A DNA stretch of 28,347 bases from Candidatus Wukongarchaeum yapensis (GTDB taxonomy: Archaea; Asgardarchaeota; Wukongarchaeia; Wukongarchaeales; Wukongarchaeaceae). Each line of letters starts with the position of its first letter. Within the stretch, counting starts at the first letter, position 1. Positions 2,478 to 6,878 of this stretch are shown here, one piece after another. The translations under genes were made by a program, and so were the position numbers. The notes beneath the pieces were generated by a model. It was not told the DNA's origin and did not search any database. It saw only the letters and a program-made list of their open reading frames with translations. The stretch is from contig JAEOSI010000001.1 in NCBI GenBank assembly GCA_016840425.1, forward strand, positions 1 to 28,347, read 5' to 3'.

Positions 2478-2508
2478 TAAAGATTTGTTTTTTAGGAGGG
2501 TATCCTTG

Positions 2509-3075
2509 ATGTCTGATAAAGATGAAAAAAGACGTTGGAAAAGAAAGAGACGTTGGGATCCTTTTGATTTTTTTGGAGAAAGTGACGAAATTTTTGAGAG
2601 TATAATGGAGCAGATGGAAGATTTTATAAGGAAATTCACAAGGTTGCCTTCGCTTTTTGGCGAAGAAGATATGGAGAAATGGGGTAAACCTTTTGTTTTC
2701 GGTTTCAGTCTAGATATTGGACCTGATGGCAAGCCTAGGTTCAGGGAGTTTGGGAATATTAAGTCTAGGGGTCGCAATGTCGTGCCTTCCCAAGAACGAG
2801 AGCCTTTGGTAGATGTCTTTGAAGAAGCTGAACATGTGAGGGTTATTGCTGAAATTCCTGGAGTACAAAAAGAAGCCGTAGATCTGAAAGGATCAGAATT
2901 CAGTTTAACTATCCATGCAACCAATACAGATAGGAGTTATTACAAAGAAGTGTCTTTGCCTGTAGCGGTTGATCCTGCTACGGCTAAAGCAACGTACAAT
3001 AACGGTGTCCTGGAAGTGATGATAAAGCGAAAAGAGCCGAAAAAGGAAGAAGGTCATGATATCAAGGTAGAATAA
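2509..3075 (+). CDS. hsp20: Archaeal small heat-shock protein (Hsp20 / alpha-crystallin domain)
   Basis: PLVDVFE, IAEIPGV, ATYNNGVLEV and a C-terminal IKVE (IxI/V-like) motif. GGAGG lies 9 nt before ATG 2509. Confidence 0.92.
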   Translation: MSDKDEKRRWKRKRRWDPFDFFGESDEIFESIMEQMEDFIRKFTRLPSLFGEEDMEKWGKPFVFGFSLDIGPDGKPRFREFGNIKSRGRNVVPSQEREPLVDVFEEAEHVRVIAEIPGVQKEAVDLKGSEFSLTIHATNTDRSYYKEVSLPVAVDPATAKATYNNGVLEVMIKRKEPKKEEGHDIKVE

Positions 3076-3209: not shown

Positions 3210-5447
3210 ATGAGTGATAAAAGTAACAAAAGTGATACTAAAACTGTTTTGAGAGTAGCAGAAGCTAAGCATAGGGACGTTGGTAGGAGTATGGCTAGAC
3301 TTGATCCAAAAGTTATGGAAAAATTAGACCTTTCTACGGGTGATGTGATCGAGATTAGAGGTAAAACAAGCACTGCTGCAATAGCATGGCCTAGCTACCC
3401 TGAAGATGCTGGTTTAGGTCTTGTTCGTATTGATGGTATTTTAAGATCTAACGCTCAGGTGGGGCTAGGAGACTCTATCGAAATCCGGAAAATAACCGCT
3501 AAGCCTGCTACCCAAGTAAACATCGCTCCTACAGAGCCTTTAAGATTAATTGGGGGTGAAAGGTATCTTCTCAGACTATTGGAAGGCAGGCCCATCATGA
3601 AGGGGGATAACATCCGTATAGACGTTGTTGGGAGAAGCCTTGAACTCGTAATCTCCAGTATTAATCCCCCAGCAGATGCTGTAATAGTGGTTCCTACTAC
3701 TAGAATAGTTTTAAGTGAGAAACCGGTAGTTTCTGAAATCCCTCACGTATCCTATGAAGATATCGGCGGACTCAAAAAGGAGATTCAACGCATAAGGGAA
3801 ATGGTTGAACTTCCCTTGAGGCACCCTGAAGTTTTCCAGAGGCTAGGAGTAGAGCCGCCTAAGGGAGTTTTGCTTTATGGTCCTCCTGGCACGGGTAAAA
3901 CACTGCTTGCAAAGGCCGTTGCCAGTGAAACCAACGCACACTTTATACCAATAAGCGGCCCTGAGATAATGAGCAAGTTTTACGGAGAATCTGAAGCAAA
4001 CATCAGAGGGATCTTTAAAGAAGCTGAAGAACGTGCGCCAAGTATCATATTCATCGATGAAATAGATGCTATAGCGCCGAAAAGAGAAGAGGTTACAGGT
4101 GAGGTTGAAAGAAGGGTTGTATCCCAGCTTCTTGCCTTGATGGATGGCTTAGAATCAAGGGGCCAAGTGGTCGTTATAGGTGCAACAAACAGGCCTAACG
4201 CTGTCGATCCTGCCTTAAGACGGCCTGGTCGCTTCGACAGAGAGATAGAGATAGGTATACCTGATAGAAACGGTCGATTTGAAATACTCCAGATTCACAC
4301 AAGAGGTATGCCTCTTGCAGATGATGTCGACCTTGAAAAATTGGGAGCTGTAACTCATGGATATGTGGGTGCAGATATAGCGGCTTTATCCAAAGAGGCT
4401 GCTATGCATGCCTTACGACGAGTACTTCCAGAAATTAATATGGAAGAAGAAACCTTGAGTCCAGAAATTTTAGATAAGCTCGTAGTAACTGATGAAGATT
4501 TCAACTCAGCCTATAAAGAGATAACGCCAACAGCTATGAGAGAAGTATTTGTTGAAGTTCCAATGGTCAAGTGGGCCGATATAGGCGGGCTAGAAGAGGT
4601 AAAACAAGAACTTAAAGAAGCAGTAGAATGGCCTCTAAAATATCCAGAAGTTTTCAGACAAGTAAACGCTAAACCTCCTAAAGGAATACTTTTATTCGGG
4701 CCTCCTGGTACCGGTAAAACACTATTAGCTAAAGCAGTAGCCAGTGAAAGTGAATCAAACTTTATCTCAATCAAGGGTCCTGAACTGTTAAGTAAATGGG
4801 TTGGCGAATCGGAAAGAGCAGTAAGAGAAATATTTAGGAAGGCAAAAAGCGCGTCTCCAAGTGTTATATTTATGGATGAACTTGATTCTATTACACCTCA
4901 CAGAGGCAGTGGAATCGGTGATTCAAGGGTTACTGAACGGGTAATCAGTCAAATTTTAACAGAGCTAGACGGTCTTATAGAACTCAATGACGTAATTGTT
5001 ATCGGGGCAAGTAATAGACCTGATATAATCGATCGTGCCCTTTTGCGTCCTGGAAGATTTGATAAGCTTATTTATGTTCCTTTACCTGATCACGCTGCTA
5101 GGGTACAAATCTTTAAGATCCATACAAGGGACTATCCTCTAGCTGATGATGTGGATCTCGAGGTTTTTGTTGATCAAACTGAAGATTATTCAGGGGCAGA
5201 AATTGAGGCCATTTGTAATGAAGCCTCAATGCTAGCGATACGGGAGTTTATCGATCAGTATGGCGGTGAAGGAAAAGAACAAGAACACTTAGAAAAGATA
5301 AAAATAAGCCGTGAACATTTCGAAAAAGCTATGAAGAAAGTTCCTAAAACAATTAAAAAAGGCGTTGAGTCTTATGAACGTTTTATTGATGAATTTAGAC
5401 AACAGCCTATCACTATGGGAAGAAGCGTACCAGATATTTACGGTTGA
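3210..5447 (+). CDS. cdc48: CDC48/VCP (p97) double AAA+ ATPase with C-terminal HbYX motif (IYG)
   Basis: N-domain, two GPPGTGKT Walker A motifs, DEID/DELD Walker [10 protein letters not shown] and RPGRFD arginine fingers, strong SD GAGGAGGT. Confidence 0.97.
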
Positions 5448-5508
5448 GCCCTACAAACGATTTATTGAGGAACTTAAAGATGGAGATATATTCTCAAAAA
5501 AAGAGTGA
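5443..5508 (+). other. Paralogous alternative CDC48 C-terminal tail in +1 frame ([21 protein letters not shown])
   Basis: 5443-5478 matches cdc48 5364-5399 at 28/36 nt and is codon-aligned ([12 protein letters not shown] vs [12 protein letters not shown]). Confidence 0.7.
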
Positions 5509-5514
5509 TTAGAG

Positions 5515-6288
5515 ATGTTATCCGAATACGAAACTAAAAAATTAAAACCTATTGAGATAATCGAAGAAGAGGCAATAGACCTTGAAGACAAAATAGTGAT
5601 CCAGGGATTTCCAGGAATGGGGCTTGTAGGCACAATAGCGGCTCACCACCTTGTCACTTCCTTAAACTTAAAACAGGTAGGCTACTTAGTAGGCATAGAG
5701 ATGCCTCCAATAGTTGTAGTGCACCAGAGCAAACCGATGTCTCCTGTCCGTATTTATTCCAACGAAGATTTCGCTTTAGTAGTTTCTGAAATAGCTATCC
5801 CAAACTATACCGTTTATCCCTTAGTAAAAACGTTGCTTGAATGGTACAAAGAAAAAAACGTCAAAGAAGTAGTGGTAATAGGGGGGTTGGGAAACCCCGA
5901 TCGTTTAACCCTCGAAGAGTTAGAAGTTTTCGGCGTTTCTACGAATGAAGATACCCGCAAATTTTTAGAAAGTCATGATGTAAAAATCCTTGATGAAGGG
6001 GTTTTAGTAGGTCCATTAGCGGTAACTTTGAGGGAAAGTGTCGTATCAAATATCCCAGCTTACGGCCTGCTATCCCAGTGTTTTTCCAAATTTCCTGATC
6101 CTGATGCAGCTGCCCGAGTTTTGCAAGTTTTAGAAAGTCTTGTTGGAATAAAAGTAGATCTAAACACTCTTTTTGAAAAGGCTGAAGAGTTAAAGATAAG
6201 GATGCGAGATCTAGCAAAACGTACAGATCAAGAGGCAAAAATGGCGGAACAAGAAGCAGCTACAGCGCCAAAAAGCTACTACAGTTAG
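5515..6288 (+). CDS. PAC2-family proteasome assembly chaperone (PbaA/PbaB-like) with HbYX tail (YYS)
   Basis: GFPGMGLVGTIAAHHL, PxRIY, PDPDAAARVL, and a C-terminal coiled segment ending KSYYS. Confidence 0.9.
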   Translation: MLSEYETKKLKPIEIIEEEAIDLEDKIVIQGFPGMGLVGTIAAHHLVTSLNLKQVGYLVGIEMPPIVVVHQSKPMSPVRIYSNEDFALVVSEIAIPNYTVYPLVKTLLEWYKEKNVKEVVVIGGLGNPDRLTLEELEVFGVSTNEDTRKFLESHDVKILDEGVLVGPLAVTLRESVVSNIPAYGLLSQCFSKFPDPDAAARVLQVLESLVGIKVDLNTLFEKAEELKIRMRDLAKRTDQEAKMAEQEAATAPKSYYS

Positions 6289-6365
6289 AAAGCAAAGGGT
6301 AGTTCAAGATTTAAAATAGGTGGATTTTGTTGGCTAGAAATAAGGAAGGACAAGAAACAAAAAAA

Positions 6366-6878
6366 ATGGCTTCAAGCGATGAAAATATTGAAACCCTTTT
6401 TAGAGCGTTGAGTAATGAGGCTAGAAGACGTATAATTGGACTTCTAGCTAACGGTCCAATGTATCTACGCCAGATCCACAGAACTTTAGAAGAAGAAATA
6501 GGAATGCATATACAAGCAGTTGCTAAGCATCTCTCTCTTTTAGAAGAAAGCGGTATACTTTCAACATATTCTGAACGGTCGCCTAGAGGTCCTCATCGTA
6601 AATATTTTTGTTTGAATGAAGGAAAATTGCTTACTATATTCTTATCTCCTCTCTGTTTATCAGTTCCTTCCCTTCTATCTTTTAATGAAAAAAGAGCAGA
6701 GAAGATCTTTGATCGCGTACGCTTTCTATCAGATGAAGAAGCTGATAAACAATTAGCCGGGATAAAAACTTTAAAGGAACAGTTTGAAAAATCCATCTCA
6801 ATTTTAGAAGAGTTTTTAGAAATCTATCAAAGAGTTCTTAAAAAGTTAGAATCTATTGAAGAGAGTGAAGAACCCTAA
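6366..6878 (+). CDS. ArsR-like winged-HTH regulator with C-terminal coiled coil, Phr/HSR1-like heat-shock repressor
   Basis: LSNEARRRIIGLL, AVAKHLSLLEESG and wing ERSPRGPHRKYF resemble, from memory, Pyrococcus Phr. Adjacent to hsp20 and cdc48. ATG 6366 chosen over TTG 6327. Confidence 0.75.
   Translation: MASSDENIETLFRALSNEARRRIIGLLANGPMYLRQIHRTLEEEIGMHIQAVAKHLSLLEESGILSTYSERSPRGPHRKYFCLNEGKLLTIFLSPLCLSVPSLLSFNEKRAEKIFDRVRFLSDEEADKQLAGIKTLKEQFEKSISILEEFLEIYQRVLKKLESIEESEEP

Follow-up and report, generated by a model that had tools for sequence, protein, structure and literature searches.

Barthelme and Sauer are said to have reported in 2012 that archaeal Cdc48/VAT docks on the 20S proteasome via a C-terminal HbYX motif. 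A heat-shock module with the gene order hsp20-cdc48-phr is known from Euryarchaeota, with Phr in Pyrococcus and HSR1 in Archaeoglobus as examples. The known archaeal forms of Cdc48 that lack HbYX are paralogs encoded separately, such as CDC48-C of M. mazei, rather than different ends of a single gene. Programmed +1 frameshifting at a stop codon of the 0 frame occurs in prfB/RF2 (CUU-UGA-C), antizyme (UCC-UGA), and Euplotes (AAA-UAA); in prfB and antizyme, the +1 frame is under strict conservation and contains the codons for most of the protein, including its essential part. The study of Forouzan et al. (2012; PMC3493965) showed that the 20S proteasome is activated by archaeal CDC48 proteins only when HbYX is present, and described the motif by the pattern [LVIMGAPFYW][FY]x. 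PbaB, an archaeal PAC2 homologue, also has an HbYX motif of its own, with which it binds to the 20S proteasome and activates it (PMC3605417).

The window analysed here, a stretch of 28,347 nucleotides from Candidatus Wukongarchaeum yapensis, carries a cdc48 gene whose stop codon is followed by a second version of the C-terminal tail in the +1 frame. The segment at 5443-5478 is likely a non-coding and slowly decaying relic, left when the 3' end of cdc48 itself underwent a short direct duplication mediated by microhomology. It is part of the spacer between cdc48 and the PAC2 gene and, on this reading, has neither a coding nor a switching role.

Gene order and the C-terminal end of Cdc48

Four co-directional genes, all on the plus strand to which every coordinate below refers, follow each other in the order hsp20 (2485..3075), cdc48 (3210..5447), a PAC2-family (PbaB-like) gene (5515..6288), and an HTH_20/PadR-like regulator (6327..6878). 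The PAC2 product of 257 aa was recognised by Pfam PF09754 (1.3e-43) and ends in Y-Y-S, an HbYX-like end. The order of hsp20, cdc48, and HTH regulator in one direction resembles the module of Euryarchaeota, as does the perfect palindrome downstream of the hsp20 TATA box. Unlike that module, however, this clade has PAC2 between cdc48 and the regulator. The HTH gene lies directly after cdc48 in distant relatives (55-62% identity), and PAC2 is a clade-specific gain at this position. It was lost secondarily in one related locus (L164), which has kept the second copy of the tail codons. The idea that an inserted PAC2 gene carried this copy along is unsupported, since both copies are located upstream of PAC2 and L164 has the second copy without PAC2.

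From the open reading frame listing and the Pfam domains, cdc48 encodes 745 aa with CDC48_N (1.3e-30), CDC48_2 (2.5e-13), two stretches of AAA (2.6e-96), and two stretches of AAA_lid_3. The protein is a Cdc48/VAT-type ATPase, composed of CDC48_N, CDC48_2, and two AAA-plus-lid modules, and the N-domain and the two AAA modules are those expected of a proteasome-docking archaeal Cdc48. The I-Y-G codons and the TGA stop occupy 5436..5447, and the stop itself (5445-5447) lies inside G-GTTGAG at the junction with the second copy, as had been read from the letters alone in the original prediction. That prediction had also invoked HbYX docking and the IYG end, correctly so, as I-Y-G matches the pattern of PMC3493965. 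Cdc48 of this locus thereby fits the description of a predicted 20S-proteasome-docking ATPase, and it has CDC48_N, CDC48_2, the two AAA modules, and an HbYX-type end in common with the published docking system.

Close Cdc48 proteins, with at least 85% identity, were taken from a collection of 5.8 billion proteins. PDIYG is the C-terminus in all eighteen that are complete and distinct (18/18), and a nineteenth stops at PDI, where it is cut by the end of its contig. Their lengths vary from 740 to 745 aa, with the differences located in the N-terminal and internal regions. More distant orthologues (55-62% identity) show the helix, a linker of approximately 10-18 residues, and then FYG, FYR, or RYA. 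Since these orthologues share the architecture of helix, linker, and HbYX, the tail that ends in IYG (tail 1) is the ancestral end of Cdc48, which answers the question of which of the two tails came first. The functional protein appears to retain this ancestral tail, namely the helix, a 10-residue linker, and then PDIYG with HbYX. Its conservation in all close relatives is consistent with the archaeal Cdc48/VAT docking system, and, unlike the case of CDC48-C in M. mazei, nothing at this locus points to a second tail in use.

The second copy and its fate in related loci

Copy 1 (5364..5399) comprises the codons of the conserved terminal helix of Cdc48. It is the parent of the duplicate and is nearly invariant in eleven relatives. 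Copy 2 (5443..5478), its diverged, non-coding duplicate, is adjacent and in the same orientation and starts 1 nt out of the cdc48 phase. Direct comparison of the sequence returned the values given in the original prediction, 28 of 36 nt identical at an offset of 79 nt, and a repeat search of the window reports the same pair as 27/34. The predicted divergence of the two tails past the helix codons was likewise borne out, with the similarity stopping abruptly after about 38 nt. From GTT at 5443, the +1 frame is open over 21 codons up to a stop at 5506-5508, as had been stated; this frame (tail 2, 5443..5508) lacks a separate start codon and is not preserved as a reading frame among the relatives. 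Its first 12 codons began as real codons, and the chance of an open stretch of 21 codons is about 0.23 by arithmetic with base frequencies assumed near 39% G+C. Tail 2 ends in K-K-E, which does not fit the HbYX pattern, and close to its end there is a weak echo of tail 1, GDIF(S) versus PDIY(G).

The binomial tail for a match of 28/36 is 1.7e-10 per pair, from which approximately 1e-3 such pairs would be expected in the window. The two copies are the sole pair with at least 28/36 at a distance of 36-300 nt within these 28 kb. When the whole genome (2.16 Mb, both strands) was scanned with a 38-nt core of copy 2, the best non-self match was copy 1 with 29/38, and the background maximum was 25/38. 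A genome search for copy 2 as a dispersed or mobile element gave only low-complexity chance matches.

Eleven related loci (L067-L072 and L160-L164) were found through PAC2 and Cdc48 homologues at 82-99% identity. Their contigs represent one genus-level clade and come from independent NCBI, ENA, JGI, and Logan assemblies of different samples. A scan of metagenome contigs contributed one of the close loci (L072), all other matches being at most 57% identical, and a PAC2 scan of genome contigs yielded no confirmed relatives. One database source labels a close homologue of this clade as Candidatus Hodarchaeota. Copy 2 is present in all eleven related loci; therefore the duplication predates the whole clade. 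Beyond the clade, the picture is different. Among 84 distinct cdc48 3' ends from relatives and metagenomes, a tail repeat rises above background only in L069, L067, and L072, and none of the other 81 exceeds 21/30. The tail repeat is thus, as far as these 3' ends indicate, a one-off event and not a feature of the family.

In the Cdc48 protein tree, the window groups at the species level with L160, L161, L162, and L067, and the sister group (support 92/92) consists of L069, the L068/L163/G001 type, and the L071/L072/L164 type. Only in the species-level group of the window is the +1 frame open. It is intact in four of the five sequences, and the same stop is reached in the window genome and in three of its four closest strains. 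The exception is L067, a close strain with 96% PAC2 identity, in which A8 instead of A7 leads to a different end of tail 2. In L161, the conserved Tyr of copy 2 has become Gln and a Lys has become Glu.

All seven sister sequences (L068, L163, L069, L070, L071, L072, and L164) have an insertion of 1 nt after GAG(C/T)CC in copy 2, and all seven show further indels and stops. Since copy 1 lacks the additional nucleotide, the insertion is derived. Their +1 frames read VEPLRTFY-stop, VESLRTFY-stop, VKFFRIVYLGI-stop, VELLKTSIEKFKLRGIF-stop and similar, and the helix-like codons of copy 2 are found in another frame, behind a TAA. The lineages with the insertion form a single clade in the tree, the sister group above; therefore it appears that one insertion broke the tail 2 frame and was tolerated. 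The expectation that tail 2 would stay open and conserved in relatives thus fails, the frame being broken or interrupted by stops in 7/7 sequences of the sister lineage.

Origin and present state of the second copy

A slipped-strand or template-switch event probably made the duplicate, before the last common ancestor of the genus-level clade. The trigger would have been the microhomology GTTGA(G), which occurs both in the Val-Glu codons at 5364 and where the Gly codon meets the stop, at 5443. In the simplest model, about 38 nt were re-copied from a primer provided by this shared GTTGA(G). It is also possible that a full tandem duplication of 79 nt was followed by an internal deletion, for which the weak GDIF/PDIY echo may be a hint. 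The open +1 frame in the window would then be a remnant of former codons that has so far escaped an indel in this lineage.

The sequence of a paralog tail (contig C100) matches copy 2 at 17/30, which equals background, and the two copies in L069 are identical at 27 of 30 positions; therefore the source was the 3' end of cdc48 itself. An origin of tail 2 from a paralog or xenolog was rejected on DNA identity and on the tails of the outgroups. The original prediction had offered, as a simpler explanation, a scar left by a paralog, a xenolog, or a short duplication; the short duplication stands, with copy 1 as the genome-wide best match, and the paralog source does not. Like other short duplications mediated by microhomology, the copies here are co-oriented and adjacent, with a junction at 5-6 nt of microhomology. 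Like pseudo-3'-end relics, copy 2 is out of phase, drifts neutrally, and has collected indels and stops in relatives. Unlike ordinary relics, it starts inside a stop codon, its open frame in one lineage mimics an alternative tail, and part of it was possibly co-opted as an AT-rich promoter box.

The spacer between cdc48 and PAC2 measures 67 nt. Pairwise identity over the whole spacer is 0.68-0.83, compared with 0.70-0.80 at four-fold degenerate sites of the flanking genes and 0.87-0.93 at codon positions 1+2. Since spacer identity is close to that of four-fold sites, the drift of the entire spacer is approximately neutral, as expected of a duplication relic, although one 20-nt island is conserved at 0.81. 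This island is the AT-rich core of copy 2 (TTTATTGAGGAACTTAAA, 5460..5479), which may be a TATA/BRE-like element. A second island is formed by an A-run followed by the SD-like GAGTGAT (5497..5509), in which the block 5499-5506 reaches an identity of 0.89; the remaining blocks of the spacer are at 0.57-0.63. The A-run is A7 in the window, A8 in L067, and A6 or interrupted in the others. The GAGTGAT motif starts 12 nt before the PAC2 ATG, and SD motifs peak genome-wide at -15 to -11 upstream of starts. The second island is the predicted Shine-Dalgarno site of PAC2, placed at this genome-wide peak. A leaderless PAC2 mRNA with a TATA element at -27 was also considered and was dropped in favour of a weaker proposal, a box at -40 to -55, since the genome-wide upstream profile has a clear SD peak and no TATA peak at -27.

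The better conservation of the AT-rich core may mean that this part of the relic is under constraint, or that it was homogenised with copy 1. According to the first of these readings, the core (TTTATT...TTAAA) now serves as a TATA/BRE-like or other regulatory site for the downstream gene, which is PAC2, or phr in the relative without PAC2. Such a reuse would concern only what the sequence does now and is compatible with its origin as a scar. In its favour, conservation within the spacer is concentrated in the core (0.81) and the SD block (0.89), compared with about 0.6 elsewhere, and the core in relatives reads GAATTTAAAT, near the box of the hsp20 promoter in the same locus (AAAGTTTTAAATA, ~2431-2443). 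The core also lies 36-54 nt ahead of the PAC2 ATG, with a leader long enough for an SD site, and TATA-like words upstream of genes in this genome spread broadly from -40 to -60 and do not concentrate at -27. However, the identity of the spacer overall equals that of synonymous sites, the island is just 20 nt long, and the window has CTTAAA instead of TTTAAA. Moreover, four co-directional genes with short spacers are just as likely to be co-transcribed with no promoter between them, and the palindrome of the hsp20 promoter, a Phr-type operator, occurs once in the window and is absent from the cdc48-PAC2 spacer. On balance, this reuse is possible but somewhat doubtful.

Replacement of the 3' end of the gene would reverse the roles of the two tails. 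Tail 2 would be the original C-terminus of the resident gene, stranded when recombination brought in tail 1 and its stop from another cdc48 allele or a xenolog that was joined illegitimately at GTTGAG. The junction, which coincides with the first of the helix codons and overlaps the stop, would suit such an exchange, as would the abrupt end of similarity past the helix and the weak echo of PDIY(G) in the last part of tail 2. But the layout of tail 1, with its long linker and HbYX, is shared by distant orthologues and is ancestral. In their DNA, synonymous sites included, the helix cores reach 90% identity (L069), which a self-copy would explain better than a diverged allele with another linker, and the DNA of the genome's single paralog is unrelated. 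Replacement is therefore an unlikely origin, and duplication of the gene's own 3' end remains the preferred one.

The most consequential part of the original prediction was that tail 2 is a standby tail without HbYX, by which proteasome coupling could be switched. Such a Cdc48, uncoupled from the proteasome, would result from programmed frameshifting into +1 at GGT-TGA or from recurrent deletion of 79 nt between the GTTGAG copies. Its arithmetic is sound: 5364 is the start of a codon, and removal of 5364-5442 would stay in frame, as had been predicted. In the window genome and three of the four closest strains, this arithmetic works with a +1 frame that is open to a common stop. Known +1 frameshift sites of the prfB, antizyme, and Euplotes kind likewise have a 0-frame stop with an open +1 frame behind it, through which the protein would be lengthened. 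Unlike the prfB-type sites, the locus has no slippery P-site codon, no SD-like stimulator, and no conserved +1 frame. At the candidate site UAC-GGU-UGA-G, the step from GGU to GUU creates a mismatch at the middle position, so that, judged from established rules, a tRNA-Gly reading GGU would be unable to re-pair with GUU, and the 10 nt upstream of the site contain no SD-like run. A search for Rfam frameshift elements in the region found none, a permissive E-value giving only a meaningless match to a viral packaging signal (E 0.75), and RNAalifold on six spacers gave no conserved structure (consensus energy -0.14 kcal/mol).

Comparison with the relatives is also against a switch. The tail 2 frame is broken in the seven sister sequences and ends differently in L067, and the spacer has the rate of synonymous sites. 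The repeats that would flank a deletable segment are variable, with GTGGAG in copy 1 of L068, GTTAAG in copy 2 of L071, L072, and L164, and GTTGAA in L161. Both forms would be expected in natural populations if the deletion recurred; however, all twelve loci and all eighteen complete close Cdc48 proteins are undeleted, and none of these proteins carries tail 2. A programmed or recurrent switch is accordingly highly improbable. A narrower version, in which the relic acts as a standby C-terminus in the species-level group of the window only and rare 79-nt deletions or +1 shifts give a subpopulation of Cdc48 without HbYX, is very unlikely as well.

Chance similarity or an assembly artefact, for which one might cite the shortness of the repeat, its AT-rich surroundings, and the 100-N scaffold gap in a genome of the same genus (G001) that begins exactly at ...CCAGATATTTA and takes the place of the sequence between the final codons of cdc48 and roughly codon 96 of PAC2, can be dismissed, given that chance would so rarely create a pair of this kind in the window, the genome-wide best match of copy 2 to copy 1, and a two-copy layout that recurs in eleven independently assembled contigs and excludes the chimera that had been allowed for.

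Meaning for the heat-shock and proteasome locus

If the standby reading were true, a subpopulation of Cdc48 without HbYX would unfold substrates without feeding the 20S proteasome, and this would be the first archaeal cdc48 gene to toggle its own proteasome coupling; the evidence is against it. In a milder version, the promoter box of the downstream PAC2 or phr genes may derive from duplicated coding sequence that was put to this new use.

The HbYX-bearing tail is the sole conserved end of Cdc48 at this locus. A canonical SD site within the spacer would serve the translation of PAC2, which fixes a second point for the heat-shock/proteasome locus of these Asgard archaea as far as it can be read from sequence. 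The case is mainly cautionary, since an open frame that mirrors the tail of a gene past its stop codon resembles an alternative C-terminus or a recoding site, and comparison with a dozen close relatives reveals such a look-alike as a neutral duplication scar.

The cdc48-PAC2 spacer and loss of PAC2

The PAC2-family gene (5515..6288), which follows cdc48 (3210..5447), is missing from one close relative, the sister-lineage locus L164 (JGI 3300068093). When L164:2620-2770 is compared with L072:1640-1700 and L072:2440-2530 of a second sister-lineage locus, cdc48 and copy 2, the decayed non-coding duplicate of the cdc48 terminal-helix codons, lead in L164 directly into the region upstream of the HTH regulator, and the junction falls within an A-run common to both spacers (GAAAA / GGAAAAAAAACG). 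Since L164 groups with the PAC2-bearing L072 as its sister in the Cdc48 tree (support 100/98), the absence of PAC2 from L164 is a secondary, precise deletion.

The poly-A run directly 5' of the PAC2 Shine-Dalgarno site (5497-5503) differs in length among relatives, being A7 in the window, A8 in L067 from the same species-level group, and A6 or CGAAAA in other relatives. In G001, the sole same-genus genome in the species set, the locus carries a 100-N scaffold gap (L008:2130-2240). The left edge of the gap falls precisely at ...CCAGATATTTA, 1 nt short of the Gly-stop junction, and sequence resumes near PAC2 codon 96; the gap may be due to heterogeneity among strains or to low local coverage.

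Variation between the two copies among close strains

The codons at an Asp/Glu wobble site in copy 1, the terminal-helix codons themselves, and in copy 2 (5388-5390 and 5467-5469) are reciprocal between the closely related strains of the window (GAT in copy 1, GAG in copy 2) and L067 (GAG and GAT, respectively). The pattern may be a hint that sequence now and then passes from one copy to the other, or that the site mutates readily; near-identical Cdc48 proteins are often polymorphic for D/E in copy 1. Four substitutions separate the window from L161, another member of the species-level group, within 11 nt of copy 2 (5448-5458; GAGCCCTACAAACG vs GAACCCCAAGAACG), while the Cdc48 proteins of these two strains are >99% identical. 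The cluster is a local hypervariable patch or a small conversion tract.

The hsp20 promoter and other possible proteasome-docking paralogs

In the promoter region of hsp20 (2431-2477), the canonical box AAAGTTTTAAATA lies upstream of a perfect palindrome, TTGTTCAC-N6-GTGAACAA, a likely operator at which the HTH regulator encoded by 6327-6878 would act. The palindrome occurs once in the window, where no second copy was found before cdc48 or PAC2.

Elsewhere in the same genome, at least five additional PAC2-family paralogs are present (27-36% identity; contigs C268, C123, C179, C79, and C261), as well as a second full-length cdc48 on contig C100, the C-terminal end of which, K-S-Y-I, also resembles HbYX, the motif for docking on the 20S proteasome. 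The PAC2-family paralogs and the HbYX-like second cdc48 together suggest a multi-member network of proteasome-docking proteins.
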